UHGV virus genome: UHGV-0195737
Reading direction: 5' to 3' (one strand)
From: a virus
Length of the DNA stretch: 58,116 nt
Positions 6,069 through 47,298 of this stretch are shown piece by piece. Under the pieces are notes generated by a model. The model did not search any database. It was given only the letters and a program-made list of their open reading frames with translations, and had not been told where the DNA came from. Within the stretch, counting starts at the first letter, position 1; each line of letters begins with the position of its first letter. A program made the translations under genes and the position numbers.

Positions 6069-6308
6069 ATGAAAGGTTTAAAAAATATCGCTATCGCTGC
6101 AATGGTTGCTGGTCTGGTTGGTTGTGCTGATATGCCAAAACGTGAATGTACAGCAATCTATCAAACTGGCGGTAATGAATATGCGGTTGCAGTCTTTGGC
6201 GTTGCAGATGTTGGCGGTCACAAAATGGTTAAGGCCGGGTATCCGTTCAATTTCCAATGGGTGAGCGTTGACCACTTCAAGAAAACGGATTGCCCGGAAC
6301 TGAATTAA
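6069..6308 (+). CDS. Small lipoprotein (moron; possible superinfection-exclusion lipoprotein)
   Basis: Start moved to internal ATG with SD GGAGGG; signal peptide with lipobox LVGC; opposite strand to flanking tail genes. Confidence 0.5.
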   Translation: MKGLKNIAIAAMVAGLVGCADMPKRECTAIYQTGGNEYAVAVFGVADVGGHKMVKAGYPFNFQWVSVDHFKKTDCPELN

Positions 6309-7265: not shown

Positions 7266-10200
7266 TTACCATGATCCGGTAATTCGCCCAATCTGGACGC
7301 GTAACACGCTATTTCCATCTCTGACAGAGATTGTTGTGTTCGTCCATTTCATCGCTCCTTCACCGCTTACTGATCCGTAGTTTTCGAATGTACCGGATTT
7401 ATCCAGCTTCCAGCCAGTACTACCGGAAACATAGTTATTTGACTGGATGTAAGATCCAATTTTCGCGTTAGTGATTGAGGCGTCTTTAATAAACGCTTCG
7501 CGCACATACATTGCACCATTTGTGACATAGAAAGGCGTTGTATATGTGCCGTTTGCCGCTGTCATTAATACAAAGCGGTCAGCAAGGAAAATACATTGCG
7601 ATTGCGTACTCGTACCGCTGCCAGTCAAGCCAAGCGAGATCCCGGAAAAATATTTCATGCCGTTGTTGTCTGCGGCGATCTTAACGCTCCACGTTGCCGA
7701 CATGTCGGTTTCAAGGCCAGCGATGGCGGTTTTATTTTCCTCAATTGATACCGATTGCCCCTCGATTGACGCCGTAATACTTTCAATCTGCGTGGCGGTC
7801 GATTCCTTATAGGTTGTAAACGCTTCGCTCCACTCCGTGATCGACGCCTCGTTTGCTTCCAGCGATGCGCTAATTTCCGCAAACTGAGTAGCATTAGCTT
7901 GTTCATGGGTGGCAAGCGCGGATTGCATTTCGGTAATAGCTGCCGCCACATCGTCGTCTATTTGCGCCTGTAGTTGCTCCAGCTTCTGCGCGGTTGCTTG
8001 TTCATTGGTTGCGATCGTCTGATTAGTTTCAGTGATTGCAGCCTCATTCTCATCAATCTGACTTTGCAGGCTATTAAACTGCGTAGCGTTGGCTTTTTCG
8101 TGGGTAGCGAGTGCTTGCTCCATGTTGCTTATTGCTGACGATATATCACCATCTACTTTAGCCTCAAGGTTGCTAATAGATTCAGATGTGGATGATTCCA
8201 GATCGGTGATCGTCTGGTTAATCTCCGTTATGCTTGCCTGAATATCTTCGTTGACCTGGCTTTCTAATTTTTCGATCGACTGGCTTGTCGAACTTTCAAG
8301 CGTTGCAATGGTTTGTTGCAGTTCGGTTACGTTGGCGCTGATTTCGTCATTGACCTTGCTTTCGAGTGTCGTAAGCGCCTGCGCGGTCGCTTCTTTCTCT
8401 GTAGCGATCACAGTGTCGATGCGCTCAATCTCCGCCTTCGTTTCTGCTTTCTGGTTTTTATACTGTGCCGTCAACGTGGTGCGCGTGCTGGTGTTAGCCA
8501 GTGAGTTATTCATAAGCGCAATAGCTGCGTTTTGCAGGCTGGCGCGTGTCTGGATTAGTTCATTTTCCTGTTCAGTTAACTCGACGCTGATTTCGTTGAT
8601 CTGGCTTTCATGTTCTCCAATTCCATCCTCATTGTTTTTCACGCGTTCTTCCAGGTCTGCGGTCGATTCTTTCAGATCGGTAACAGCCTGGTCAATATCT
8701 ACCGTGGTTTGTTTCAGTTCTTCCACATCGCCCATCAAGCCGCCTGTTACCTCGTCGATGGTTTCTTTAATCATGTCCTGAAATTGCTCACCCTCCATAA
8801 CTTCATTCAGCACGGCATCCGTGATTTCTTCGAAGTTTTCGGACGGCTTACCACTGGCTTCGATAAAGTCAGATACGCCGAAAGCGTTTTTTGTGCGCAC
8901 GTAAACGTAATACGTGTGGCCCGTTGCCATCCCGCCAAAAGTCCACTGATAGCCGCGCCCGGAAAATTGCGCTGATGTTGTTACCAGTGAGAAGTCAGTA
9001 ATCTGGTTTTCTCCAGCGTAATAGAATTCGTAAGTAGTATCAGTCGTTAGCGTGCTGTTGCTGATCGGGTAAACAGTCGCCTGAAAAACACCTGGCACCC
9101 AATTAACACCAGTCGGCGCGGCAGGCGCACCAACAATAAGATCTACCAGTGTTTCCGCTCCCTTCATCCCGGTGTCATTGCGCCCACGAATACCAAGCGA
9201 ATAATTACCGCACTCAAGGCCGAAAAAGTCATACCGGTAATTTTGCGTTTCGTAGCTCGCCACCACGCGCCCGTCGGTGTCATAAATGCGGATCTCAAAG
9301 GTTAATGCGCGGGTAGTGGTTTGAGTTTCCCAGGTGGCGCGGCATTGAACTGTTTCCGATCCAATGTTTATCACTTTCAGGTTTTCGATGTTCGGTACAC
9401 GGAAGTGATTCAGCGTGTCGCTGTTAACCTCAAAGATTGCGCCCTCATCGACAACCGCTTGCTTGTTCGGATCGTGCTGCGCGGCCTCAATGGTGTATAC
9501 GCTGTTATTTTCGGTTTCGGCTACGCTAGTGATTCGACATAAAACGGGTTTTGCCGCTTCGGTTGATACAGCAAATACAGTACCGTTCCGAATCCATGCC
9601 GGGGCCGCCGCTAAGGTGATCTCGTTTCCATTCACTCCGGTGATCTGGTGTTTTTTAAATTTACCATCGCTATCGAGCAAGCTGATGGTGTCGCCTGCCG
9701 TAATGTACTCGCTATCAACCTTATCAACCGTTATCACGTTCCCGTTATTCGCCACGATACGACCGCCTAAACGCGCGCCAGCACGGTTATTATCGAGAAT
9801 CTCGATAATATCCCCTGGTGTAAAGTGAATCGCGTCACGGGCCATTTTAAACGTGAATTTCGACGGCTCGCGTTTTGCTGTTTCTATCAGCCATTTGCCC
9901 GCGCGGTACGCTTGCCCGCGTGATGTACAGCCGAACGCCTCCAGTGTGGTTTCATTGTAACCATCGCGGGCGATTAGCTCATCATCCGCTACATACTCTT
10001 TTGATTGCTCCCAGCCGTTTTCCGGATCAGTCCAGGATACAATCACGGCGTTGTAACATTCCGCACGCGCAATGCTTGAACGGGTGAATGCACCATCAAC
10101 GACGTTTGCGTTTGTGATGGTTGCAATCGGATCTTGCGGTGCATCGAGCATTACAGTAAGTGTTTGACCGTCCCATAACGCAATCCCCCGGAACATTCCG

Positions 10201-11243
10201 GCAATGTTGTCCAGTAAGTCGCGGGCGCTCATTTGCTCCGTAATGTATGCATTAAGCGTCACGCGCGGCTCAAGGCCGCCATAACCATCGTCAACCAACT
10301 GATCGCAGTATTGGGAAAGCGTGTATAATGCGCCGTCGTCAACGTCAATATAACCAGCATGGCGGGCAAGGCCAAAACGCTCGTTTTTAACCAGATACCG
10401 GAAGATCCACGCTGGGTTATTGGTGTACACCTGTTTCATCCCGCCCAGCCATAAACCGGAATAAGTGCGCGTTTCCGGATCGTAGTTATCCGGTACATCA
10501 ACAATCAGGCCACGCATGTGATAAGTGCGTGTCGGCGTGTCGGTATACTGGTCATGATCAATCACCGCGCCCGCTACAGCGGTGTGAGGATAAGACAAGT
10601 TATCGTCGATAATTTCACTGTAGCTATTCCAGCGGGTATCATTCTGCAATAGATCGCCCGTGCTGTCAGGTGTTATGCGGCGAACGCGAATATCGAACGG
10701 TTTTTCGTCCGGCGCATCAATGATGTGTGATTCCAGATATTCACCGCTAATCTTACCCGGACCGATTTGCACGGCCTTAATCGCCGACCAGATTGATGAT
10801 GATGATGGTTTTACATCAATCGCCATAAAAACTGATGTTTCATGCTGGTTTGATTCGCTGTCACTTTCCACCAGTGAATCCACGCCAATATTCAACCGGA
10901 CGCGCGTCACGTTCGGATCTGATACCGTCCTTACCAGTGGCGTGTCATATTTCACCTGCGCGTTAACCATTACCGTAGATTCAATGGCGTTGAAGCCGTT
11001 GATCGGTGACTGGTCGGCAGTACCCGGACGCCAGGCGACGCTAACGCCTGGGATACTGGTATTACCCACGGCATCCGTAACAGGTGTGTCATTAAGCATT
11101 ACGCAGTTTAACGGGGCAGCGGTATTGACCGGACCGTAAATCGGCCCTTCACTCAATATATCCAGAACCCGGTAAAATTGCTTATGAAATAAATTGTCGT
11201 TTATTAATGTTGGTGTTTTTGCTTTACCACCGCCGCCGCCCAT
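7266..11243 (-). CDS. J: Host specificity / tail tip protein J-like
   Basis: N-terminus matches lambda J as recalled (DxxSEGPIxGPV, NDTPV); long central coiled-coil repeat region; position after I. Confidence 0.8.
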   Translation of the reverse strand: MGGGGGKAKTPTLINDNLFHKQFYRVLDILSEGPIYGPVNTAAPLNCVMLNDTPVTDAVGNTSIPGVSVAWRPGTADQSPINGFNAIESTVMVNAQVKYDTPLVRTVSDPNVTRVRLNIGVDSLVESDSESNQHETSVFMAIDVKPSSSSIWSAIKAVQIGPGKISGEYLESHIIDAPDEKPFDIRVRRITPDSTGDLLQNDTRWNSYSEIIDDNLSYPHTAVAGAVIDHDQYTDTPTRTYHMRGLIVDVPDNYDPETRTYSGLWLGGMKQVYTNNPAWIFRYLVKNERFGLARHAGYIDVDDGALYTLSQYCDQLVDDGYGGLEPRVTLNAYITEQMSARDLLDNIAGMFRGIALWDGQTLTVMLDAPQDPIATITNANVVDGAFTRSSIARAECYNAVIVSWTDPENGWEQSKEYVADDELIARDGYNETTLEAFGCTSRGQAYRAGKWLIETAKREPSKFTFKMARDAIHFTPGDIIEILDNNRAGARLGGRIVANNGNVITVDKVDSEYITAGDTISLLDSDGKFKKHQITGVNGNEITLAAAPAWIRNGTVFAVSTEAAKPVLCRITSVAETENNSVYTIEAAQHDPNKQAVVDEGAIFEVNSDTLNHFRVPNIENLKVINIGSETVQCRATWETQTTTRALTFEIRIYDTDGRVVASYETQNYRYDFFGLECGNYSLGIRGRNDTGMKGAETLVDLIVGAPAAPTGVNWVPGVFQATVYPISNSTLTTDTTYEFYYAGENQITDFSLVTTSAQFSGRGYQWTFGGMATGHTYYVYVRTKNAFGVSDFIEASGKPSENFEEITDAVLNEVMEGEQFQDMIKETIDEVTGGLMGDVEELKQTTVDIDQAVTDLKESTADLEERVKNNEDGIGEHESQINEISVELTEQENELIQTRASLQNAAIALMNNSLANTSTRTTLTAQYKNQKAETKAEIERIDTVIATEKEATAQALTTLESKVNDEISANVTELQQTIATLESSTSQSIEKLESQVNEDIQASITEINQTITDLESSTSESISNLEAKVDGDISSAISNMEQALATHEKANATQFNSLQSQIDENEAAITETNQTIATNEQATAQKLEQLQAQIDDDVAAAITEMQSALATHEQANATQFAEISASLEANEASITEWSEAFTTYKESTATQIESITASIEGQSVSIEENKTAIAGLETDMSATWSVKIAADNNGMKYFSGISLGLTGSGTSTQSQCIFLADRFVLMTAANGTYTTPFYVTNGAMYVREAFIKDASITNAKIGSYIQSNNYVSGSTGWKLDKSGTFENYGSVSGEGAMKWTNTTISVRDGNSVLRVQIGRITGSW

Positions 11244-11255
11244 AATAACCCCCTA

Positions 11256-11786
11256 TTAACTTACAACGTCTAAGGCGTCTTTATTGTTGGTTGTATCAAT
11301 ACCCAACGATCCAACGTTCGACCCGATTTTCATTTCGCCAAGTAAAATTGGTACGGGTCGGCCTTGCCCTACTCTGTTTTCTACACTGGTGTAACTGTTG
11401 TTTGTAATGCTGTTATCCTGCGCACTTTCTGCTGATGTTTTCACTTTCATGTTTCGGGCCATAAAAATTGAAAACGCAATACTCGCAACGGAAAGGCCAA
11501 TTAACAGCCAGCCAACCACCCCAATCCCTGCAATACCACCTTCTACCACTGGCGCAACAATAATTGTTGTTCCGTCGGGATATTCATTATTAACGGCGGC
11601 TGGCGCGGTTTTCGCGTCGTAATCCTTTCCGGCAATCCGTAACCGTAATGGCGTACTTAAAAACGCCCGTTTAAATTCCTGATTCTGCGCGGTCAATAAG
11701 CGAAGCCCCTGCGCAGGTGTATTGACGTTTAAACACACCTTGCTGAAATATCTTCGAAGATTGCCCGTAAATCTAAATTTGAGCAT
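11256..11786 (-). CDS. I: Tail assembly protein I
   Basis: 176 aa, hydrophobic glycine-rich centre, overlaps K 3' end as in lambda; position between K and J. Confidence 0.55.
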   Translation of the reverse strand: MLKFRFTGNLRRYFSKVCLNVNTPAQGLRLLTAQNQEFKRAFLSTPLRLRIAGKDYDAKTAPAAVNNEYPDGTTIIVAPVVEGGIAGIGVVGWLLIGLSVASIAFSIFMARNMKVKTSAESAQDNSITNNSYTSVENRVGQGRPVPILLGEMKIGSNVGSLGIDTTNNKDALDVVS

Positions 11787-12460
11787 TTATCAGATCTCCA
11801 TATTGAATGCGTTTGTCGAACATATGCGGGCCGCATTTGCTCGCGGCGGCTCAATAGTCCGGCATGGTCATGATGCAAAACCGTGTTATCACCCAGGTAA
11901 ACCATCGCGTGACATGGGTCCGCGCCTTTAAATGGTTGCCTGATAATCACATCACCCGGCTGGATGTTTTGCGCGTCAACCTGGAAAAACCCGTTTAGCG
12001 GCAAGTTTTTTAAATACAGGTTTTCACCGCGCAACCACCAGCCATCAAGGCGCTCGAAGTCCGGTAGATCCACACCACAAAGGTGATAGGCATCCCGGAA
12101 AAGCGTGTAACAATCCGTTACGCCGTGCACAAACTTACGGCCTAACAGGTGCGCCACCGGGCGAAATCTTTTAATCCTGCCGCCGGAACACAAAAACCAG
12201 GGTAGCCCGGAAATAACTTGCTGTTGTCGATCCCGTGCCGACAATACCGGAATATCATCAACGTGGGAGTGGAAAACGGCGGTTATAACGCCCAATTCGT
12301 CCGCTTTGATGTAATCGTCCGGCGAAATCTTAAAGCTGTTGTACGGCGTTTCAGACACGTTAGCGCACGAAAAAAAATATTCATCATCTATCACCAGTCC
12401 GCATACTTCCTCAAGCGGGTGTGCGGCGGCATAACGCAACATTTTGTCTTCCATCGCCAT
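11729..12460 (-). CDS. K: Tail assembly protein K (MPN/JAMM plus NlpC/P60-like)
   Basis: HSHV JAMM-like motif and DCYTL cysteine motif; position between L and I. Confidence 0.7.
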   Translation of the reverse strand: MAMEDKMLRYAAAHPLEEVCGLVIDDEYFFSCANVSETPYNSFKISPDDYIKADELGVITAVFHSHVDDIPVLSARDRQQQVISGLPWFLCSGGRIKRFRPVAHLLGRKFVHGVTDCYTLFRDAYHLCGVDLPDFERLDGWWLRGENLYLKNLPLNGFFQVDAQNIQPGDVIIRQPFKGADPCHAMVYLGDNTVLHHDHAGLLSRREQMRPAYVRQTHSIWRSDKCSNLDLRAIFEDISARCV

Positions 12461-12462
12461 GA

Positions 12463-13167
12463 TTAACCTACCTTACTGGACCCCGGAAAACAGGAGATTG
12501 GCAGTGCCGCCGGGCGCGGGAAACGTAAACGGCAACCGCTCAAGCGGTGGCTGCACCGATCTAATGTTGGATCATTAGTCGGAACGTCTTTGTCTGTTGC
12601 AACTGGCCCGCCAGCGTAACCACATCCATCACCTTTGTATTGCCACTGGCAAACGTCCGCAAGAATGGTGCGGCCAGGGATAATGGCTTTATCTTCATCA
12701 ATTGGCGTTGCCAGTTCATATTGCACCTGGTCGGCGGTTTCTTCGCTCATAGCTTCAATGACGTAAACCGATACCGCTTCAATAGATGGATCTGCATCGG
12801 GATTGCCATTAGGGAAGTTAATGGCATCCAGATATTTTACCTCCACCTGGCGGCGCGTTACCTTCATCCCCCGAAGGTCGTTGTAATCGGTGTTCATTCC
12901 GGTAATAAGCCCTTCAATGTTGGCTACAGCCATTTGGGGCCGTGAATAAACACCCTCGTTTTTCATTTCGAAGCCTGTCGCCTCGATCGGGTAGCTGTTG
13001 TAAGCTACGCCCTTCCAGATAACCGGGCCGTAATAGCCGTTCGCGCCGGAATGGAAGCGGATAACCTCGCCTCCCAGGGGCGTAAGGTCCAGTTCGAACA
13101 AGTCAATGATTGCGCCGACTCCCGCATCGACGGAATCAATAATCATCTCTGTAGGTATATTGCGCAT
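12463..13167 (-). CDS. L: Minor tail protein L
   Basis: Matches lambda L as recalled (IDLTxxGGE, GDxCGYxG, RCSxxLSGCxxR); start set at ATG with SD instead of track TTG. Confidence 0.75.
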   Translation of the reverse strand: MRNIPTEMIIDSVDAGVGAIIDLFELDLTPLGGEVIRFHSGANGYYGPVIWKGVAYNSYPIEATGFEMKNEGVYSRPQMAVANIEGLITGMNTDYNDLRGMKVTRRQVEVKYLDAINFPNGNPDADPSIEAVSVYVIEAMSEETADQVQYELATPIDEDKAIIPGRTILADVCQWQYKGDGCGYAGGPVATDKDVPTNDPTLDRCSHRLSGCRLRFPRPAALPISCFPGSSKVG

Positions 13168-13299
13168 TTTCTCACCTTTCGATTTTGTGATCTGCGTCAC
13201 GCTAAATCGCGCCAAAATGGATTGATCGCGATTTTTACAATATGTATATTTTACTCAAACGAAGGGGAAGTTAACAAAACGGCATAAAAGGGGTACGGG

Positions 13300-13467
13300 A
13301 TGAACGATAAGCTATGGCGGCTAACCTTGTTTATGAGTAGCGGGCGTGATGTTGAGGCTGAATTCGATAATCCCAGCGACGCATTGGAAACAGCTCTCGA
13401 CCTGTCAGAAAAAGATGATCGCGTCCTGGGCTACCGGATTAAACCGATTAAAAACGGGGATCAGTAG
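13300..13467 (+). CDS. Hypothetical small protein (moron cassette b)
   Basis: 55-aa ORF, not in ORF track; SD AAAGGGG; first gene of plus-strand cassette. Confidence 0.4.
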   Translation: MNDKLWRLTLFMSSGRDVEAEFDNPSDALETALDLSEKDDRVLGYRIKPIKNGDQ

Positions 13468-13468
13468 G

Positions 13469-13819
13469 ATGCAAAAATATAAGCTCGAAGTGTTTACGGA
13501 TCGGTGCAATTGGGAATGTATAGGTTTATATGACACAGACGTTAAAGCACATACGGAAGGGCGAGAACTGCTGCGATGTTGGTCTAATGCCCGCGACTAT
13601 GTGGTCACTCCAGTACAAATAGCGGAAAAGGTGGAAGATATGAAATACGATATTGATAACAATGCTTGTTTTAAAGAAAACCTTGCGGATTCTATGGATC
13701 AATCTTGCCCGGAAATACACGCGCACGGTTTCCCGGCAGACGACCCGAAAGCAAAACAGGAATACGAAAAAGCGGCAAAAGATTTCTGCATCGATAACCT
13801 GGGCGCTTTCAATAAATAA
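13469..13819 (+). CDS. Hypothetical protein (moron cassette b)
   Basis: 116 aa from internal ATG of track ORF 13346-13819; coupled to upstream ORF. Confidence 0.5.
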   Translation: MQKYKLEVFTDRCNWECIGLYDTDVKAHTEGRELLRCWSNARDYVVTPVQIAEKVEDMKYDIDNNACFKENLADSMDQSCPEIHAHGFPADDPKAKQEYEKAAKDFCIDNLGAFNK

Positions 13820-13828
13820 GGTGGCAGT

Positions 13829-14077
13829 ATGGCGCGGCGTAATCACGGAGACTATGTATACACGTTGAAACAAGCCGCCCGCCTTATCGGTTATCATGAG
13901 CACGAATTTATTGATTTGCTGATTGAGCGCGGGATTTTGTACCAGGTCTGTTTAACGCTGTACCCGAAAGCGAAATATTTGCAGGAAAAGTTATTCATCA
14001 TCATGACGGATGAAAACCAGGTTAATCATTCATTCGTCACTGACAAGGGCGTTAATTATCTGCGTGATAACCTGTAG
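13829..14077 (+). CDS. Putative small DNA-binding protein (excisionase/HTH_17-like)
   Basis: 82 aa; YTLKQAARLIGYHEHEFIDLLIERGIL resembles Xis/AlpA-type HTH. Confidence 0.4.
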   Translation: MARRNHGDYVYTLKQAARLIGYHEHEFIDLLIERGILYQVCLTLYPKAKYLQEKLFIIMTDENQVNHSFVTDKGVNYLRDNL

Positions 14078-14085
14078 GACCGCAT

Positions 14086-14289
14086 ATGTTAAAGTACGAC
14101 GGGCAAGAAACAGTCAGGTTTACTGGTTTTACTAAGGGGAACAATAAGGAGCTAACAGAATATTTTAGCTTAGATATTGGCGATGTTTACCGAGTAGAAA
14201 AATACTTACCCTCAATTAATTCTTTCATAATCATTAACAAAGAAAATCAAGGGGTGCTTGTTACATTCAACGAAGTGGAGTTGCCTTAA
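14086..14289 (+). CDS. Hypothetical protein (moron cassette b)
   Basis: 67-aa ORF in operon-like spacing. Confidence 0.4.
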   Translation: MLKYDGQETVRFTGFTKGNNKELTEYFSLDIGDVYRVEKYLPSINSFIIINKENQGVLVTFNEVELP

Positions 14290-14370
14290 ATGAATAGAGT
14301 GGACGAAGTAATTGAAAATGTTCTGGTAGTGGCTGGCGCAATCGCCATTGTTTATGCCTTTCTGAATTAA
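14290..14370 (+). CDS. Putative hydrophobic microprotein (26 aa)
   Basis: ATG overlaps upstream stop (TAAATG); single predicted TM helix. Confidence 0.25.
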   Translation: MNRVDEVIENVLVVAGAIAIVYAFLN

Positions 14371-14381
14371 CGGAGTGAATC

Positions 14382-14519
14382 ATGAAAATCGAAGTTTTAG
14401 CACTAATAGCAATGGGATTGATAGTATTTGGCGTACACGCTGCGGATTTGGACTGGTGCGCAATAGCTGAGAATATGGCACACGCTCACCCAATGGGATT
14501 GATGCACATGAACTTCTAA
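14382..14519 (+). CDS. Putative secreted peptide (45 aa)
   Basis: SD GGAG; N-terminal signal peptide ending VHA-AD; His-rich C-terminus. Confidence 0.35.
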   Translation: MKIEVLALIAMGLIVFGVHAADLDWCAIAENMAHAHPMGLMHMNF

Positions 14520-14528
14520 CACGAAAAA

Positions 14529-14557
14529 CCCCGCTCCGGCGGGGTGTTATTTTATTT
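14529..14557 (+). terminator. Rho-independent terminator of cassette b
   Basis: CCCCGC-TCCG-GCGGGG stem-loop followed by TGTTATTTTATTT. Confidence 0.6.
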
Positions 14558-14639
14558 GTCGTTCCGGCTATCGATTTCGTAAAAAATAGCCATACCTACC
14601 GCGATAATGAATACCATTACTAAACCATCAATCAGCATA

Positions 14640-14825
14640 TTAAACGCCCTCAATCAGAAATAAATACTCCTTCCCTTCGTATGATCTGCATCCCACATAC
14701 CCGTCGCCGTAGTCATGCAGATACCAGGTGTCGCCCTTGTCACTCACTACCGTGAGGTTATCGATCTGATAGTCTTCGAATAGCGTAAATGATTCATCGC
14801 CCGTCTTAACGCACATCCCGTACAT
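14640..14825 (-). CDS. Hypothetical small protein
   Basis: 61-aa ORF immediately downstream of M. Confidence 0.35.
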   Translation of the reverse strand: MYGMCVKTGDESFTLFEDYQIDNLTVVSDKGDTWYLHDYGDGYVGCRSYEGKEYLFLIEGV

Positions 14826-14834
14826 GTTGCCCCC

Positions 14835-15188
14835 TTAATTGATAACTTGTTCAAATGTCGCGGTTAGCGTGTATACAGGGCCGTCTTTCGTCATGTTCCA
14901 TTTTCGGCAGACAAAAAGCCTTTGCTCCCCATCCATTGATGGTGTCCAGTAAAACGCCTCGACCGCGCCGCGCGCCCGTAAAAACGCCTCTGCCTGGACC
15001 GCTGGATTGCCAGCGTCACCACATCCGGCGCTCGAACCTTTAAAAACCACGCTGTAGTCGTCGAGCAAGGGATTAATCCCCTTAACCTGGCGTTGCTCAT
15101 AACCATCACCCAGCTTGACGACCGATACGTTTGGCTCCCTGGTTACGCTGTAGCTTCGCTGCGGCGTCCAGGTAAACACTTCCGGCAT
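14835..15188 (-). CDS. M: Minor tail protein M
   Basis: Matches lambda M as recalled (GDGYxQR, YSV, C-terminal FEQVIN); SD GGGGGAAG. Confidence 0.8.
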   Translation of the reverse strand: MPEVFTWTPQRSYSVTREPNVSVVKLGDGYEQRQVKGINPLLDDYSVVFKGSSAGCGDAGNPAVQAEAFLRARGAVEAFYWTPSMDGEQRLFVCRKWNMTKDGPVYTLTATFEQVIN

Positions 15189-15216
15189 ACTTCCCCCTAT
15201 AAGTTACATTTTGTGT

Positions 15217-15245
15217 ACATCTTTACGCGTTGCTACGCGAAAAAT
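15217..15245. repeat. 29-bp conserved hairpin element, copy 1
   Basis: ACATCTTTACGCGTTGCTACGCGAAAAAT; 28/29 identical to 27307-27335; upstream of M. Confidence 0.5.
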
Positions 15246-15356
15246 GAGATATTCATCACAAGAATTATAACCAGTTTACAAAATGGCTTCACACAGGACG
15301 CAACAAGATGTATATAGAAAGCAAGAAGAAAGCAGTACCAACAAAGGAGGCCCAAG

Positions 15357-15524
15357 ATGAAAGGCAACGATAAACACTACGCAGTCGTAATGCTTAACGA
15401 CGCATTCGAACAAGTAGAAGTAGCGATTGTTAAAGGCTTCGATGATGCGTTCAAAATGGGCCAGTTCTACATGAACGTGAAAGCAAACGAATATCGGGAT
15501 TTCTACCTGAAAGCGGTCAACTAA
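15357..15524 (+). CDS. Hypothetical small protein (moron cassette c)
   Basis: 55-aa ORF with strong SD AAGGAGG; not in ORF track. Confidence 0.45.
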   Translation: MKGNDKHYAVVMLNDAFEQVEVAIVKGFDDAFKMGQFYMNVKANEYRDFYLKAVN

Positions 15525-15542
15525 GGATGATGGGGGTGGGCT

Positions 15543-15797
15543 ATGAAACTGGTAGCGATTGATAAAAACCTGAAAGCACAGAAAAACGCACAGGACCGGA
15601 TCATCAAAAAAGGTAAGGCTTTATTAAACGCTTTCCTGAGAAAAGAAGCCTACCCCAAAAAATTACGCGATGGATACGGCTACAAAATGGATATTAACCC
15701 CGACTGGCGGCTTTACAGTCAGGACTTAAAGGTTTGGTTAATTGTTGAACACCACAAATACAATGAATTATGCGGCGTGCGCGGTTGCCATAAGTGA
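15543..15797 (+). CDS. Hypothetical basic protein (moron cassette c)
   Basis: 84 aa, Lys-rich, C-terminal HHKYNELCGVRGCHK; SD GGGGGTGGG. Confidence 0.45.
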   Translation: MKLVAIDKNLKAQKNAQDRIIKKGKALLNAFLRKEAYPKKLRDGYGYKMDINPDWRLYSQDLKVWLIVEHHKYNELCGVRGCHK

Positions 15798-15805
15798 GGT
15801 GGGAT

Positions 15806-15898
15806 ATGGAAGATGATAAATTTACATGGCGGGAGATCTGGAATATTTGGCAGGTGATTTTCGGAAGGGGATATGTCGCGCGGAATGGTCGATTATAG
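15806..15898 (+). CDS. Putative microprotein (30 aa)
   Basis: SD GAGGTGGG then ATG; Trp-rich. Confidence 0.25.
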   Translation: MEDDKFTWREIWNIWQVIFGRGYVARNGRL

Positions 15899-15904
15899 GG
15901 GTAA

Positions 15905-16087
15905 ATGATGATTATTAATGAAACGGAAGAATGTAGGCGAATCACTCTTAGCATTGAGTATGACGAAAGATTATGGCTTGAAAGCGACTGCGAACTTATC
16001 GTAATAGACAAAAAGCAAGCCGCCGAACTAATAAAAGCATTACAGCTTTATGTAAACAACGAATTTAAAAACGACGAAGTTGAATAA
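15905..16087 (+). CDS. Hypothetical acidic protein (moron cassette c)
   Basis: 60-aa ORF, AT-rich codon usage unlike flanking tail genes. Confidence 0.4.
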   Translation: MMIINETEECRRITLSIEYDERLWLESDCELIVIDKKQAAELIKALQLYVNNEFKNDEVE

Positions 16088-16094
16088 AAGATAA

Positions 16095-16125
16095 CCCCGG
16101 CATTGTACCGGGGTTTTGTTTATTT
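16095..16125 (+). terminator. Bidirectional rho-independent terminator (cassette c / H)
   Basis: CCCCGG-CATTGTA-CCGGGG followed by TTTTGTTTATTT; T-rich on the other strand as well. Confidence 0.6.
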
Positions 16126-18462
16126 GCGGCGTGGTTGCAATATGCCGCCAGGACGCGTGCTTTGTTCTCTGACTACACTCATAGCTACGCGCTTCATTGT
16201 GTCTTCAAGTCTGCGGCTATCATCATCACTAAAACCGTTTGTCGTTTGAACTGTGATACTGACAGGCATGTTGATGCCACCGCTGCCGCCCAGGTCGCGG
16301 CCTGGTGTAACACGCCCACCTTCACCGGGGATCATGTACTGTTTCCCGCCAGTGGTAGTAAACAGTTCTGGTATACCGTGCTCACCAACCCTGTAAAGAT
16401 TGCCACCGTTAACCGCGCCGCCGTTGTAGCGCCCGCCGCCGAAAATCGACGTCGCCAGTGACATGATCGCGGATAGTGCCGCCGCGCCAGCCGCCGCCCA
16501 GCTACCGCCAGTTGACGCCGCTGTCGCCGCTGCCGCCGGGGCCGCTGCCGCTGCAATCTGACCTTGCGCCGCTACCGCGCCAGCCGTGGTGCTGGCTTGC
16601 GTTGCCTTACTCTGACTTTCCATCATGATTTGATCGGCTATCCAGTTCCCGGCAATGTCGGCAAGCCTGTTACCCACCGTACCGAGTATATTGCTTCCCA
16701 GGTTAGCAAACATCTCACTGAGGGATTGCGTACCGTTCAATAATCCGGTGATAGCGTTGCTCATGCCGCCTTTTAAGCCGCTGACGCAATCGCCTATTAG
16801 GGCGTTAGTATCGCTTTGCGCCTGCCATTGTTCCCACTTCAGGTTGGCGATGGTTTGCTCATGCTGGAGTTGTTCAGCCCGGATTTGTGCCTCTGAGGCG
16901 TTCAGATCTAACAACATTTGCTTACGGATGGCCCATTCATTTTGCGCCTGCTGAATGGGATCTACTTGCCCTTTGAGTTTATCCATAGGATTAATCATGT
17001 TATCCCATTTATCTTGCAAGGCTTCGGCTTCAAGTCCAGCCAGCGTGCGATCCCTTTCTTCTCTTATGCCCTTCATAGCGCCTTTGTATTCAAGGAGCGT
17101 GATTTTGCCCTGGGCGAAGGCAGCATCAATGGCCATGCCGCTCTTTAATGCTTTGCGCATGGCGGCGGCGTCTTTGTTGTACTGGTCGGAAACACTGATA
17201 CCCTGATCGCCTAAGCGGTCATAGTCTGATTTTTTCGCTTTCTTCTGTTTTTTCGGCTTGCCAACTGGTTTGTCAAATCCGGTGATACTGCCATCATTAT
17301 TTGAGGCTTGTTCTTCCTTCTGCGCTTCTTCTGTGCGTTTAAGCATTCCTTGATGGTCTTCCCATGCTAACATCGCCCAACCTAAGCGTTTACCGTATTT
17401 CTTGAACGGATCGCTGTTATATTCATCCTTGCTTTTTCCGACCAATTCCTTCGCCCACTTATAAGCATCCATCATTGCCTTAATTGGCGTCACCATTTCG
17501 ATGATCTTGTCGGCAACCTCCTTAGCCTTAACCGCAACATCATCAAACATGTCGATAAACTCACCTCCAGCGCGCTTCAATGTATTAAAGCAGTTAGCTG
17601 CAAAACTCACTTTTTCGCCCAGCCATCGTCCACCAGTGGCAGTATTATCCAGGATAGTGACCACTCTGTCTGACACGCCTAATAGATCATCGAGTTTTTC
17701 AACCAGTCCCATGACTTCGATTTTTAGCGAATTGAACGCAACGCCGGACGTGCGCGGGAGTTGTTCAAATTGCTCGTTTGTTTCTTTCGTTGCCGCCTGG
17801 ATAGCGTTGACCATTCTTTCAGCGGTGATCTTACCTTCCAGCATTTCGGCGCGGAACTGGCCCATTGATAACCCCATTTGTTTTGCCATTGTTTGTACGA
17901 TGGTTGGGGTGTTTTCCAGTAAACTGTTAAATTCTTCCGCACGCAGTACGCCGCCGTCAACCGCCTGCCGGAATTGGCGCATGGAGTTAGACATTTGTTC
18001 GGCTGATGCCCCGCCTAACGCCCCCATTTTTTGAAGCGTGCCTACCAGATTAAGGATCTGCCCTTCGGTGGCAGATGTATTTTTTAATGAGATGGCTAAA
18101 CCTTGCCATAGGTCGGTTGTATCTTTAATACTTTGCCCGGTCTGGTGAGCGATAGATTTAAGGCCATCAAAAACCCGGTTTGCGCTTTCTGCGTCACCTG
18201 TCAGCATTTTGATTTTTATGCGTAGCTGTTTTGCCTGCTCTGCCATGTCAATAAACTGGCGCACGGCCTCCGCTGCGACTAACAGGTGGATAACCCTGGT
18301 CAGTGCTTTGATTGATGTTTTCAGTGTATTAACCTGGCGGTCAGCACGTTTTGCGCCGCGCTCGATACTGTCGAATGTCTGATCGGCCTGTCGCTGTACG
18401 ACAAGGAGTTGCCCTGTTTTGGCGTCGATCTCGTAATAAATTGTACCTAAACTGGTAGCCAT
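16120..18462 (-). CDS. H: Tail tape measure protein
   Basis: 780 aa, long alpha-helical protein with Ala/Gly-rich C-terminal segment; sits between chaperone and M. Confidence 0.85.
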   Translation of the reverse strand: MATSLGTIYYEIDAKTGQLLVVQRQADQTFDSIERGAKRADRQVNTLKTSIKALTRVIHLLVAAEAVRQFIDMAEQAKQLRIKIKMLTGDAESANRVFDGLKSIAHQTGQSIKDTTDLWQGLAISLKNTSATEGQILNLVGTLQKMGALGGASAEQMSNSMRQFRQAVDGGVLRAEEFNSLLENTPTIVQTMAKQMGLSMGQFRAEMLEGKITAERMVNAIQAATKETNEQFEQLPRTSGVAFNSLKIEVMGLVEKLDDLLGVSDRVVTILDNTATGGRWLGEKVSFAANCFNTLKRAGGEFIDMFDDVAVKAKEVADKIIEMVTPIKAMMDAYKWAKELVGKSKDEYNSDPFKKYGKRLGWAMLAWEDHQGMLKRTEEAQKEEQASNNDGSITGFDKPVGKPKKQKKAKKSDYDRLGDQGISVSDQYNKDAAAMRKALKSGMAIDAAFAQGKITLLEYKGAMKGIREERDRTLAGLEAEALQDKWDNMINPMDKLKGQVDPIQQAQNEWAIRKQMLLDLNASEAQIRAEQLQHEQTIANLKWEQWQAQSDTNALIGDCVSGLKGGMSNAITGLLNGTQSLSEMFANLGSNILGTVGNRLADIAGNWIADQIMMESQSKATQASTTAGAVAAQGQIAAAAAPAAAATAASTGGSWAAAGAAALSAIMSLATSIFGGGRYNGGAVNGGNLYRVGEHGIPELFTTTGGKQYMIPGEGGRVTPGRDLGGSGGINMPVSITVQTTNGFSDDDSRRLEDTMKRVAMSVVREQSTRPGGILQPRRK

Positions 18463-18500
18463 GATTTAACCTCATACAAAATGTGATCTGTGCCTCTATT

Positions 18501-18542
18501 TTATACAAAATGGCTTTACTTTACCGACTCCATTTTGTATAA
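18501..18542. promoter_or_regulatory. Perfect 13-bp inverted repeat (putative regulator binding site)
   Basis: TTATACAAAATGG-N16-CCATTTTGTATAA upstream of plus-strand cassette d. Confidence 0.4.
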
Positions 18543-18593
18543 GGAAGTCAAAGGAAAAGATAGTTAAACAAAACAATTAAGTGGGGGTGTTTT

Positions 18594-18818
18594 ATGAAAC
18601 GTTATGATGGTATCTATGAAAAAATTGGTGGCTTCCACAAAGGCGAACAATTTAAAATCATCGACGGCGAAGTGTACGCCGGGAGAAACAATAACAAGGA
18701 ATGGGAGCACATTGATCACCCAGCACAAAAGGAAGCCTGGTTGAGATTAGTTAAAGGGTTTCAAGTCGGCAATAGAATCATTAAAGACAAAAACATTGTA
18801 AAAATTGCTGATATTTAA
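18594..18818 (+). CDS. Hypothetical protein (moron cassette d)
   Basis: 74-aa ORF with SD GTGGGGG. Confidence 0.45.
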   Translation: MKRYDGIYEKIGGFHKGEQFKIIDGEVYAGRNNNKEWEHIDHPAQKEAWLRLVKGFQVGNRIIKDKNIVKIADI

Positions 18819-18829
18819 CGGGGTGTTTT

Positions 18830-19183
18830 ATGAAACGGTTAGCGAAAGTAGTAATGATGGTGGCGCTGGTTGGTTTTGCATTTAACGCCCACGCCGACGA
18901 TAAAATGGATAAGGCTATTTATGAATGCGCTCACGCCGCGCACCTGTACGACATAAGACACGGTGACGGTACGGGGTATAAAGAAATTATTTTTGACATG
19001 GCGTGTAAACAAAAAGCCTTAATACCATTTCTTGACAAGGAAATAGTTAAAGCAAGAAAAATACACGAAAAATACGAAGCATTGAAAGCGGAAAATAAAG
19101 ATCCCGAAGTCGCGGAAGTGTTCAGACATGGAGAAATAAAGGGGCACGCAATCCATAACAGAATCAACGCTGGCGCGGCCTAA
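18830..19183 (+). CDS. Secreted/periplasmic protein of unknown function
   Basis: 117 aa; signal peptide ending AFNAHA-DD; conserved Cys pair. Confidence 0.5.
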   Translation: MKRLAKVVMMVALVGFAFNAHADDKMDKAIYECAHAAHLYDIRHGDGTGYKEIIFDMACKQKALIPFLDKEIVKARKIHEKYEALKAENKDPEVAEVFRHGEIKGHAIHNRINAGAA

Positions 19184-19193
19184 TAAACAAAAC

Positions 19194-19216
19194 GCCCGGA
19201 TCTACCGGGCTTTTTT
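19194..19216 (+). terminator. Bidirectional rho-independent terminator
   Basis: GCCCGGA-TCTA-CCGGGC followed by TTTTTT; T-tract on the other strand too. Confidence 0.6.
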
Positions 19217-19879
19217 CTGCCTGCGATTTTTCATTCTTTCCAGTGCCTTTCTAGCGGCCTCCATTCGCTCGTCATAAACCTGTTTATTTATCTGAACGTT
19301 TGGTTTAGCTTTCTCGTTTTTCGCGTCTGGCGGCATTTTAGCGCGTACAGCGGCCCTATATCCGGTCATGGTCATGGCCCATGCTTCCGATTCAGATAAT
19401 CCCAGGTGAGCAACGGCAGAATAAACGAATTCCAGCACGTTAAAGGCTGGCTTATATTCCCCTTCCGGGATCTCTCCGGCGTCTTCTTCCGGCCCGTCAC
19501 CGATTAGACCGTGGTACATGCAATGCTGTGCCAGCGTGATAATATCTTCGGTTGGCATTAATCCGGGTTTCTGTCGTAGCTTGCCCGCAGGAGTAAATCG
19601 ACATTCGCCCACCAGGTCTGTTATATCGTCGTCAGAGCAACATTTCAGGATATGGATGGACGATTGCACTATCTCACCATAACACCGCGCCAGAATGCGA
19701 TTACGGAGGTCTGGATCGTTAGGCAGGCGGGAGGGATACTTGCTACCGTGAATGGTTGCGAATAACTGGACAAGCTCACGATCGCCGCCAATTTTCGCCA
19801 TTGCAGCGAAGCAGGGGTTAAACACGTAGCGTTTATTATCCACCACCGCCGCAAATTGTCCGGTACGAACATGAATCAT
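19202..19879 (-). CDS. Putative tail assembly chaperone
   Basis: Position between major tail gene and tape measure; start set at ATG with SD GGTGA; no frameshift partner seen. Confidence 0.4.
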   Translation of the reverse strand: MIHVRTGQFAAVVDNKRYVFNPCFAAMAKIGGDRELVQLFATIHGSKYPSRLPNDPDLRNRILARCYGEIVQSSIHILKCCSDDDITDLVGECRFTPAGKLRQKPGLMPTEDIITLAQHCMYHGLIGDGPEEDAGEIPEGEYKPAFNVLEFVYSAVAHLGLSESEAWAMTMTGYRAAVRAKMPPDAKNEKAKPNVQINKQVYDERMEAARKALERMKNRRQKKAR

Positions 19880-42416: not shown

Positions 42417-42475
42417 TTTACAAAACGGATACAGCAGGACAAGACAAAATGTATATTTATGTGATCGCAATCACG
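42417..42475. promoter_or_regulatory. Intergenic element B (homologue of element A)
   Basis: TACAAAACGGATAC...TGTGATCGCAATCACG; near-CRP palindrome. Confidence 0.4.
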
Positions 42476-46218: not shown

Positions 46219-46252
46219 TGCACATTTCAGTGCAACCGGATTGTTAAAGAGC
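46219..46252 (-). promoter_or_regulatory. nutL-like site (boxA + boxB hairpin)
   Basis: Minus strand reads GCTCTTTAACAAT (rrn/lambda boxA-like), then hairpin TGCAC-TGAAAT-GTGCA, about 30 nt before N start. Confidence 0.45.
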
Positions 46253-46450: not shown

Positions 46451-47098
46451 TTATGGCAGGTTTACGATCTTTGCATCCACCACCACGCCAATAATTTTTG
46501 ATTCAGGGTTTAGCGGGATTGGTGGGTACAGCGGATTAAGCGAACGTAAAAGCCTTTGACCTCCATCAATGATTAACTGTTTAAACGTCGGCGTTTGCCC
46601 TTCCTCCAGTTGGGCTATAACCAGTTTGCCGTCAATAGCTGGCGCGTGCGGATCGACAAGTATCATCGTCCCTGCCGGGATACTTAATCCCTGCGGTGCG
46701 TTCATTGACTCACCTTTTGCGACCAGCCAATAACTATCATCCGAACAAATCACGCTCGTGTTAACGTGTGGTAGTAATGCGCGTTTTGCTTCTTCCATGT
46801 AGTTTCCTGCGTCTTTCCAGTCAATAACCGGATAACGTCCCACGTCGAGCGGCGGCGCTCCCGGCAACGTATTTGAAACTGAATCATCGATAACCATCCC
46901 GTCATGAGTGACCGTAAACTGCCGACGACCAAGCGCCCGCATAATCCGCGCAATATCTTCAAGATTTGGCTCGCGGCGACCATTCAGCCAGTGAGATAAG
47001 CCGCCTTTTGTGATCCCCATGAGATCCGCCAATGAATCCTGGCTCATGCCTTGCGCCCGCATGAGTTGTTTTGCTAAGTCATACCATTTTGTTTTCAT
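46451..47098 (-). CDS. CI-like repressor (HTH plus LexA-type S24 peptidase domain)
   Basis: N-terminal HTH (QDSLADLMGITKGGLSHWLNG); C-terminal AKGESM serine motif and downstream Lys. Confidence 0.75.
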   Translation of the reverse strand: MKTKWYDLAKQLMRAQGMSQDSLADLMGITKGGLSHWLNGRREPNLEDIARIMRALGRRQFTVTHDGMVIDDSVSNTLPGAPPLDVGRYPVIDWKDAGNYMEEAKRALLPHVNTSVICSDDSYWLVAKGESMNAPQGLSIPAGTMILVDPHAPAIDGKLVIAQLEEGQTPTFKQLIIDGGQRLLRSLNPLYPPIPLNPESKIIGVVVDAKIVNLP

Positions 47099-47126: not shown

Positions 47127-47222
47127 GATGCAAGTCACAAAATGTATTTTTCAAGCCTTGACCGAAAAACACCATTCTGTAAACTTGCAGACAAGGTAAA
47201 GCCGGACTTGCAAAGACGCAAG
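47127..47222. promoter_or_regulatory. Operator/divergent promoter region
   Basis: Inverted repeats TCAAGcCTTGA, CTTGcagaCAAG, CTTGCaaagacGCAAG, plus TGCAAGTCA/GACTTGCA pair. Confidence 0.4.
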
Positions 47223-47265
47223 AAAAAAGATGAGGGAATAGCACAAAAAGGCGCATACCTTAAAA

Positions 47266-47298
47266 GCTCTTTAAAAACCTGGTGTCGCTGCGAAGCGA
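47266..47298 (+). promoter_or_regulatory. nutR-like site (boxA + boxB hairpin)
   Basis: GCTCTTTAA then 10 nt then TCGCT-GCGA-AGCGA hairpin, upstream of the first plus-strand gene. Confidence 0.4.

Follow-up and report, generated by a model that had tools for sequence, protein, structure and literature searches.

An opposite-strand operon with a predicted stand-alone KilAC domain between tail genes L and M, apparently fixed in mEp021-type coliphages

The late region of the viral genome UHGV-0195737 raises a question of layout and function: what is a group of plus-strand open reading frames (ORFs) doing between the tail genes L and M, both of which are encoded on the minus strand? In the 58,116-nt stretch that we analyzed (the window), L and M are ~1.6 kb apart, and six ORFs of 55, 116, 82, 67, 26, and 45 amino acids (aa), here called o1 to o6, lie inside this gap on the opposite strand. 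Both points had been made in the original prediction, which was based on the nucleotide sequence without database searches, and both are confirmed by the ORF coordinates and by Pfam matches for the two tail genes. The same prediction treated the six ORFs as a self-contained regulated module inserted between L and M, and the gap as the place of a plus-strand unit. The gap also holds two minus-strand genes, o8 and o7, and the idea of an insertion did not survive the comparison with related phages.

The whole window is an Escherichia coli phage of the mEp021 type (the mEpimmI group), as seen from DNA matches to published phages. This group was described in 2025 as Nus-dependent and non-lambdoid, with a single immunity type (PMC11893012, Negrete-Mendez et al., 2025; GenBank MH706966, PP180001-5); its members are reported to be as frequent as lambdoid phages in a human-faecal collection, and about half of their genes have no known function. 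Phages with 82-90% DNA identity to the region are mEp021, mEp515, mEp010, mEp044, mEp554, mEp013, and MagusPhagus; the region is also matched by prophages in 34 complete E. coli genomes. We compared 47 related loci by tblastn, comprising three annotated records and 44 IMG/VR loci that came from a scan of viral contigs with o2. Between L and M, o2, o3, and o8 are present in all 47 loci, and o1 is present in 46. The L-M distance has a minimum of 1196 nt, a median of 1290 nt, and a maximum of 1891 nt. In one IMG/VR contig (3300045988_076772, locus L004) the genes of the gap are identical to those of the window except for a single residue in o7. Because every one of the 47 loci has the cassette at this place, and the mEp021 annotation includes it as well, we consider it a lineage-wide accessory operon that is fixed in mEp021-type coliphages rather than recently inserted. 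Its flanks show neither inverted nor direct repeats of significance, and the possibility that it is an invertible segment was dropped on these grounds.

The ORFs of the cassette are tightly packed, with 0-11 nt between neighbours and a purine-rich stretch resembling a Shine-Dalgarno site ahead of each. As had been noticed originally, their G+C content is lower than that of the tail genes (0.37-0.46 vs. 0.50-0.55 in L and M). Public gene callers predict five of the six, the exception being the 26-aa o5. The ratios of nonsynonymous to synonymous substitution rates (dN/dS; summed pairwise, NG86), calculated over the related loci, are 0.26 for o1, 0.22 for o2, 0.11 for o3, 0.11 for o4, 0.18 for o5, and 0.12 for o6, the values for the neighbours being 0.13 (o7), 0.10 (o8), 0.04 (L), and 0.07 (M). 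Since the gene callers support them and dN/dS is low across related loci, these ORFs are more than chance, and by this measure all six are under purifying selection.

The product of o3 matches the Pfam family PF03374 (KilAC/ANT, a MerR/Xis-like winged helix-turn-helix) with 29.9 bits, above the gathering cut-off of 25.3 (E=7e-7; positions 23-105 of the 108 positions of the hidden Markov model). This agrees with the Xis-like helix-turn-helix seen earlier in the 82-aa ORF and corrects the statement that no product belongs to a recognizable family. Precomputed matches to PF03374 exist for six of the seven o3 homologue clusters, and the RefSeq name is 'phage antirepressor KilAC domain-containing protein'. 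The AlphaFold2 model is of moderate quality (mean predicted local distance difference test score, pLDDT, of 69). Outside the lineage, relatives of o3 are found only as C-termini of Rha/Ant antirepressors of Vibrio, Cronobacter, and Hafnia phages, with 32-38% identity. The two-domain architecture of such antirepressors, with an N-terminal Bro-N, AntA/AntB, or Rha domain, is not seen in o3, which consists of KilAC only.

The identity of o3 to the window copy is 90-100% in every locus, compared with 82-95% for M, 77-93% for K, and 84-92% for L. All-against-all median identities of L and o3 are about equal (95.6% and 95.1%, respectively), while the synonymous divergence of o3 is low (dS of 0.29 vs. 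0.5-0.9 in the neighbours). By these measures, o3 is among the best-conserved genes of the L-M neighbourhood, and only L matches it. High conservation together with low dS would be in line with a protein that is constrained by a conserved partner or by numerous DNA sites.

The other two core genes, o1 and o2, show the opposite behaviour, being the fastest-evolving genes of the neighbourhood: identity to the window copy is 37-93% for o1 in the 46 loci that carry it and 55-74% for o2. In the alignment, o2 has three parts, a hypervariable and mosaic N-terminal domain of ~50 aa (residues 1-50), a variable, disordered linker, and a nearly invariant C-terminal part of 45 residues, in which C80, H84, and C107 are invariant. 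The dN/dS values for the N-terminal domain and its C-terminal counterpart are 0.26 and 0.08, respectively. AlphaFold2 models the N-terminal domain as beta-beta-alpha-beta with pLDDT >90 for residues 1-50, the remainder being modelled poorly, and the fold weakly resembles small DUF7336/DUF2188-like phage proteins. The acidic o1 protein aligns over its whole length with the N-terminal domain of o2 (hhalign probability of 82%, E=1e-5), and hence the two are probably tandem paralogues. An assignment of o1 to Arc-like ribbon-helix-helix (RHH) repressors was rejected because the related domain of o2 is predicted to be beta-beta-alpha-beta. We also rejected a paralogy of either o1 or the o2 N-terminal domain with p1, a 55-aa protein encoded between M and H (hhalign probability <1%).

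Homologues of o2 form 44 clusters, whose sources are all E. coli or mEp-like. The family has 13 representatives among 1.84 billion proteins, and the profile search of these gave only family members, fragments, and two repeat proteins (one OmpA-like, the other with an NVNYADSM repeat) that we judged spurious; a scan of genome contigs with o2 gave no confirmed relative. Among 50,697 phage records, o1 was found in seven mEp-type phages only. Taken as they stand, these searches define o1 and o2 as paralogous small alpha/beta proteins confined to this lineage. For o1, o2, o4, o5, and o6, no match was found in Pfam, NCBIfam, or PADLOC, PHROGs returned only families of unknown function, and sequence searches against the PDB gave chance-level matches only.

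The 3' part of the cassette varies between the phages. The combinations seen in the 47 loci are o6 alone (17 loci), o4, o5, and o6 together (nine), o5 and o6 (seven), and none of the three (14). No match to o4 was found in the 50,697 phage records. Judging from the sequence, o5 has a hydrophobic C-terminal stretch (VLVVAGAIAIVYAFL), and o6 starts with a segment resembling a signal peptide or a transmembrane helix (…FGVHA|AD), much as the original prediction had it, and ends with a His/Met-rich tail. The 14 loci without o4-o6 (L005, L007, L012, L017, L022-L025, L029, L035, L040-L042, and L047) carry instead a 24-aa hydrophobic ORF, MCENYVLEVIIIIIGLLCILLSTL or its variants, which, as read from the locus sequences, follows the o3 stop codon by one base and takes up about 1-75 nt after it. 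Therefore, every version of the cassette has at least one tiny hydrophobic peptide; each variant closes with a hydrophobic peptide of 24-45 aa, and these peptides belong to three unrelated sequence types. In addition, six loci (L002, which is mEp021, L012, L020, L029, L041, and L042) contain additional DNA, about 270-470 nt long, that separates o2 from o3 and corresponds in mEp021 to the annotated gp72 of 75 aa. From its distribution, this is a second variable slot inside the cassette. Absence from some close relatives, which is expected of a moron in the sense of Hendrix and Juhala and would leave the flanking genes adjacent, was thus found for o4, o5, and o6 alone and not for the core o1-o3. 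In its occurrence the 3' part resembles the exchangeable cargo of morons, with o5 and o6 as predicted membrane or secreted peptides, of a type often used for exclusion.

In order to see how the cassette could be regulated, we examined the 132-nt spacer between L and o1, the start of L being most likely the ATG at 13167 (234 aa, as in the relatives) rather than the TTG at 13215. Hardly any variation is seen in this spacer among the 34 distinct relatives in which its conservation was read, and it contains a predicted sigma-70 promoter of the cassette, P_o. A CCAAAATGG box abuts the -35 hexamer TTGATC (13222-13227) of P_o, the 17-nt spacer holds ACAATATGTA, and the -10 hexamer is TATATT (13245-13250). 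With the early promoter beside the repressor gene (TTGACT-17-TATATT, 46327-46299), P_o has in common AAAATGGATTGA, the 17-nt spacer, TATATT, and a TCAAA-purine start region. The -10 hexamer of a promoter predicted for L on the minus strand overlaps the -10 hexamer of P_o, and both hexamers stay promoter-like in the relatives. If the L promoter is real, the two directions would compete for RNA polymerase. This predicted promoter, together with the minus-strand terminators at 14545-14528 and 16115-16093, suggests, as far as consensus matches go, that the tail genes may form several transcription units in place of a single operon.

The cassette ends at a predicted bidirectional terminator that it shares with the convergent M-o8-o7 unit. 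This is a GC-rich hairpin with T-runs on both strands, in which AACCCCGC-loop-GCGGGGT is kept in 47 of 47 loci and the loop is variable.

The boxes around P_o are variants of a 10-mer, TACAAAATGG, that recurs in the window. It has nine perfect copies (15277, 15681, 18504, 18530, 32346, 38559, 38624, 46329, and 51046), of which eight lie in intergenic promoter regions, and 22 copies with at most one mismatch, compared with 6.8 expected; the one-mismatch variants are at 47172 (before the repressor gene), 42419, 5982, 18475, and other positions. As a rule the 10-mer abuts the -35 hexamer of a promoter-like site. It is located directly upstream of the -35 hexamer ahead of the cassette between M and H (15277), in the H/q spacer on both strands (18504, 18530), and ahead of the lysis/late region (32346); further copies precede the NinG unit (38559, 38624) as well as the early operon beside the repressor gene (46329). 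A second related box (ACAAnATGTA or CCATTTTGTA) often follows 26 bp downstream. Around P_o, variants are found at about -42, over the spacer and the -10 hexamer, and in the leader, where the box reads TTAACAAAACGG (TTAACAAAATGG in most relatives; the form is TTAACAAAA(C/T)GG). Two further boxes, in the immunity region, cover part of the -10 hexamers of divergent promoters. The box could be the operator of a phage regulator or an UP-like element; it is compatible with the proximal UP-element consensus. As far as the sequence goes, the cassette promoter belongs to a phage-wide promoter family. Because the extended consensus of P_o is common to further promoters of this phage, the cassette seems to be wired into the phage programme and not autonomous. 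Of the self-contained regulated module proposed originally, the opposite-strand unit with its own ribosome-binding sites and terminator is supported, to which a conserved predicted promoter is added; its autonomy is not supported.

Upstream of P_o lies the dyad TGTGATCTGCGTCACG (TGTGATC-N4-GTCACG), which resembles the CRP consensus TGTGA-N6-TCAC. It is centred ~63 bp upstream of the inferred cassette transcript start, roughly the class-I position, and among the 34 relatives its arms are conserved and its central 4 bp are variable. The pattern TGTGA-N6-TCAC has five matches at four sites of the window (13186, 35700, 38600, and 42460), with 0.23 expected. Three of the four dyads are in regulatory spacers beside TACAAAATGG-type boxes: one upstream of P_o, one within the spacer of a promoter-like site on the minus strand ahead of NinG, and one a short way downstream of a promoter-like site on the plus strand (42417-42456) that no obvious gene follows. 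Reading P_o for a LexA box, we found no CTGT-N8-ACAG and therefore rejected direct SOS control of this promoter. Several dyads of the immunity region were considered as repressor operators, which could not be defined from them; covariation was of no help, as all relatives share one immunity type. Boxes similar to boxA (GCTCTTTAA) at 46243-46251 (minus strand) and 47265-47273 (plus strand), downstream of the divergent/early promoters flanking the repressor gene, probably correspond to two nut sites of mEp021 (nutR1 and nutL). A scan of 12900-19300 against Rfam gave nothing credible.

The L-M cassette is one of four opposite-strand islands in the late region, where the minus-strand units H, M-o8-o7, and L-K-I-J follow each other in this order and plus-strand units separate them (Table 1). 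In the M-H cassette, p2 matches the ParE_like family, and p1-p2 looks like an antitoxin-toxin pair. The third cassette lies between H and the next late gene (18594-19183). In the H/q spacer, the two perfect TACAAAATGG boxes are inverted relative to each other (18504+, 18530-), and divergent promoters of this cassette and of H could make use of them. The fourth island is a lipoprotein gene between distal tail-fibre genes, with TACAAAATG-type boxes upstream (5949- and 5982+); its product corresponds to the Lpp proteins, whose plasmid-borne expression was shown to cause exclusion of mEp phages and of lambda (PMC11893012). Elsewhere in the late region, mEp021 and mEp515 (L002 and L001) have a 188-aa ORF in the late orientation between I and J, labelled a putative HNH endonuclease in mEp021 and hypothetical in mEp515, which is absent from the window.

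Table 1. Positions of the cassette genes, their predicted signals, and neighbouring features in the window; fractions give occurrence in the related loci.
Feature	Position	Strand	Description	Evidence or occurrence
CRP-consensus-like dyad	13186-13201		upstream of P_o	pattern scan
P_o	13211-13250	+	predicted sigma-70 cassette promoter	promoter scan; nearly invariant in 34 distinct relatives
L promoter	13248-13277	-	predicted, TTGTTA-18-TAAAAT	promoter scan, 9 of 12
Leader box	13271-13282	+	variant of TACAAAATGG
o1	13300-13467	+	55 aa, acidic small protein	phrog_29559 E=7e-13
o2	13469-13819	+	116 aa, three-part protein
o3	13829-14077	+	82 aa, predicted stand-alone KilAC/ANT domain	Pfam PF03374
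o4	14086-14289	+	67 aa, accessory	9/47; weak phrog_14327 match
o5	14290-14370	+	26 aa, accessory	16/47
o6	14382-14519	+	45 aa, accessory	33/47; long form and short (38 aa) form
Terminator of cassette and M-o8-o7	14528-14545		predicted bidirectional, intrinsic	scan, both strands
o7	14552-14653	-	33 aa, hydrophobic peptide, last gene of M unit	5/47
o8	14640-14825	-	61 aa, directly after M, late orientation	phrog_3249 E=6e-19; 47/47
M	14835-15188	-	tail gene	Pfam Phage_min_tail E=2e-30
L	12463-13167	-	tail gene, 234 aa by analogy with relatives' L	Pfam Phage_tail_L E=1e-69
K	11729-12460	-	tail gene	lambda-like tail module
I	11256-11786	-	tail gene	lambda-like tail module
J	7266-11243	-	tail gene	lambda-like tail module
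H	16120-18462	-	tape measure protein	lambda-like tail module
p1, M-H cassette	15357-15524	+	55 aa	45/47
p2, M-H cassette	15543-15797	+	84 aa	ParE_like PF24732, 44.1 bits (cut-off 24.4); 47/47
p3, M-H cassette	15905-16087	+	60 aa
M-H cassette terminator	16093-16115		bidirectional
ORF, cassette between H and next late gene	18594-18818	+	74 aa
ORF, cassette between H and next late gene	18830-19183	+	117 aa, with signal peptide
Terminator of the same cassette	19194-19210		bidirectional
Lipoprotein gene	6069-6308	+	MKGLKNIAIAAMVAGLVGC…, between distal tail-fibre genes	corresponds to Lpp proteins

Parts of the cassette have been described before. In mEp021 it is annotated as gp74, gp73, gp72, and gp71, the last one as 'putative antirepressor', and it is also annotated in mEp515. 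The o3 protein is 100% identical to gp71 of mEp021, while o2 and o1 are 66% and 52% identical to their counterparts there. Unlike the window, which represents the fullest version (o4, o5, and o6), mEp021 has no o4 or o5, and the extra gp72 follows o2 and precedes o3. A 'phage antirepressor protein KilAC-like' is listed among the near-core genes of the group, and the text of that paper does not treat the cassette as one unit, nor does it describe the orientation, the promoter or regulation, or the variable 3' end (PMC11893012).

The cassette is laid out like a moron or a 'non-contiguous operon', with its own predicted promoter directed against the tail genes and a terminator shared with the M unit: opposite-strand genes break a co-directional operon, and the predicted signals and the base composition are its own. 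Morons of tail clusters are extra units with their own promoter and terminator and lower G+C content, small membrane proteins being their typical cargo; a moron reportedly described in a tail-gene cluster is HK97 gp15 (by Cumby and co-workers in 2012). The cassette is similar to such morons in its promoter and terminator, lower G+C content, and location between tail genes. It differs in that all members of the lineage have the core o1-o2-o3, presence and absence being confined to o4-o6, and in that its orientation is opposite to the late genes. Another parallel is the immI region of P22 (mnt-arc-ant), where an antirepressor-type gene with its own promoter is located in the late genes, far from the main immunity region; Ant of P22 has 300 aa and is controlled by the RHH repressors Arc and Mnt. 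Like immI, the cassette has an antirepressor-type gene with its own predicted promoter inside the late genes. Unlike Ant, o3 is a bare KilAC domain, and the small upstream proteins are predicted to be beta-beta-alpha-beta and not RHH.

Two experimentally studied systems bear on the expression and function of the cassette. In phi80, the opposite-strand gene taiEcA lies within the Q-dependent late operon and breaks it up; the lysogen expresses this gene, less so when Q drives late transcription, and its late-orientation neighbour atiEcA counteracts it (PMC11364771, He et al., 2024). The L-M cassette is similar in that opposite-strand genes break the late operon and a small late-orientation gene lies beside them, while the phi80 unit is upstream of the packaging genes and has one gene, compared with a six-gene operon between L and M in the window. 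In Listeria, the KilAC domain of AriS, expressed alone, blocks the SOS response and prophage induction (PMC9043618, Azulay et al., 2022); according to our reading, this is the sole experimentally backed activity of an isolated KilAC domain. AriS, from phage phi10403S, shares PF03374 with o3, but it has 259 aa with an N-terminal AntA/AntB domain, compared with the bare 82-aa domain of o3, and its host is Gram-positive, whereas that of o3 is E. coli; the likeness is that of a shared family.

By analogy with these systems, we tentatively favour, at somewhat less than an even chance, an operon that is expressed while late transcription is off and that combines KilAC-based control of induction or of the SOS response with exclusion at the membrane. 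The cassette would be transcribed in the prophage, and perhaps early after infection, and would be shut down by antisense late-gene transcription and by the overlap with the L promoter. The o3 protein would modulate the circuit of repressor and SOS induction, as the AriS KilAC domain does; o1 and o2 would be variable subunits binding partners or targets; and the small peptides would act at the membrane in exclusion or host modification. This reading is supported by the Lpp exclusion lipoprotein in a sister plus-strand cassette and by the opposite-strand gene in the late operon of phi80, with its lysogenic expression and its decrease under Q-driven transcription (PMC11364771). In the same direction, the mEpimmI phages are reported to be mostly not UV-inducible (PMC11893012), yet the repressor (46451-47098, minus strand) has HTH_3 and Peptidase_S24 domains with a candidate Ala-Gly site (…WKDAGNY…), a GESM serine, and a downstream lysine.

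Several points weigh against this explanation. The timing of the cassette is deduced only from gene orientation and consensus promoters, and the promoter most similar to P_o is the early promoter beside the repressor gene, which is expected to be off in the lysogen. For a moron that benefits the host, it is unusual that all members carry the core set. The o3 protein has 82 aa and no more than about 30-38% identity with other KilAC domains, while AriS works in Gram-positive bacteria on a target that is not proven (PMC9043618), and the transfer of function to o3 is weak on both counts. The scarce UV induction of the group could stem from other causes, and no informative homologues or fold matches were found for o1 and o2.

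If P_o and the early promoter share an operator, the cassette would be an early lytic unit, and this is the alternative that we consider possible, if unlikely. Repressed in the lysogen, it would fire with the early genes; o3 would be a classical antirepressor, or a regulator of the early phase, by which lytic growth is locked in or resident prophages are induced, and o1 and o2 would be inhibitors for host takeover or anti-defence. The extended sequence that P_o shares with the early promoter is as expected in this case, as are the variants of the 10-mer around P_o, given that such boxes, as operators would, extend into the -10 hexamers of both divergent promoters in the immunity region. Moreover, KilAC domains are typical of antirepressors, the mosaic N-terminal domains of o1 and o2 suggest an arms race, and core status in all members fits a function in the life cycle. 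However, the boxes could equally be UP-like promoter elements, and the averaged dN/dS of o1 and o2 is only about 0.26. A location on the opposite strand of the late region, in collision with late transcription, is more typical of prophage-expressed genes, and the small membrane peptides and the sister cassettes (Lpp, ParE-like toxin) look like lysogen functions.

The shared boxes also allow a broader model, in which the late region is a chain of 'divergons' that gives a distributed lysogenic/lytic toggle, with o3, in addition, blocking the RecA/SOS-dependent cleavage of the repressor. Each divergon may consist of a late unit (H; M-o8-o7; L-K-I-J) and an opposite-strand operon with an interdigitated bidirectional promoter under the control of TACAAAATGG, and could engage RNA polymerase in one direction at a time. 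We regard this model as doubtful.

A pair similar to Tai/Ati, in which the cassette is an anti-phage factor expressed by the prophage and neutralized by o8 (and o7) during the phage's own lytic cycle, is quite unlikely. The architecture is as described for taiEcA/atiEcA (PMC11364771), the location is among tail-tip genes, and o8, a 61-aa core gene, sits exactly in the place of the antidote. Still, alleles of o8 follow the neighbours M, o7, and o6 and not o1 or o2, the products of the cassette have 26-116 aa compared with 26 kDa for TaiEcA, and none of the eight small ORFs in the L-M gap matched a PADLOC-DB 2.0 family at E<=1. When o1, o2, and o3 were used as queries, the only matches beyond the mEp lineage were distant KilAC domains for o3, and hence no known Tai-carrying phage, the Tai and Ati sequences not being compared directly.

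Toxin-antitoxin or abortive infection, with a hydrophobic peptide or o2 as the toxin held by a neighbouring product, is improbable: the operon is tightly packed and translationally coupled, its tiny peptides are hydrophobic, and a ParE-like toxin is encoded in the adjacent M-H cassette, but none of the six products matches a toxin, antitoxin, or defence family in Pfam, NCBIfam, or PADLOC, contrary to what had been suggested, no antisense RNA family was found in Rfam, and the peptides interchange between phages while the core stays fixed. A role of the products in tail assembly or in the virion is hardly credible, since the position between L and M and the core status speak for it, whereas the strand opposite to all structural genes, the own predicted promoter and terminator, the lack of tail-structural families among the Pfam and PHROGs matches, and the published text on the mEp021 virion proteome (16 proteins), without gp71-gp74 (PMC11893012), all speak against it.

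The explanation that we tentatively favour remains expression with late transcription off. It is already known that the genes are deposited and partly named, that the phage group is published, and that opposite-strand units in late operons are a known kind. Four observations appear to be new: a fixed core with a swappable peptide tail; the paralogues o1 and o2 with hypervariable domains; a KilAC protein among the best-conserved genes of the stretch, matched only by L; and promoter boxes shared by all four cassettes with the early and repressor promoters.

The cassette holds the only KilAC-domain protein of the lineage, within a conserved gene set. If o3 damps the SOS response or repressor cleavage, this would explain the poor UV inducibility of the group, and SOS control of the AriS type would then be found in phages of E. 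coli too. In particular, if o3 blocks repressor cleavage, it would be explained why most mEpimmI prophages are not UV-inducible despite a repressor that looks cleavable. The fast-evolving pair of o1 and o2 is a candidate for an unrecognised phage-host or phage-phage interaction. Finally, the four cassettes with common promoter boxes offer a compact system for studying how prophage-expressed genes are separated from late transcription.

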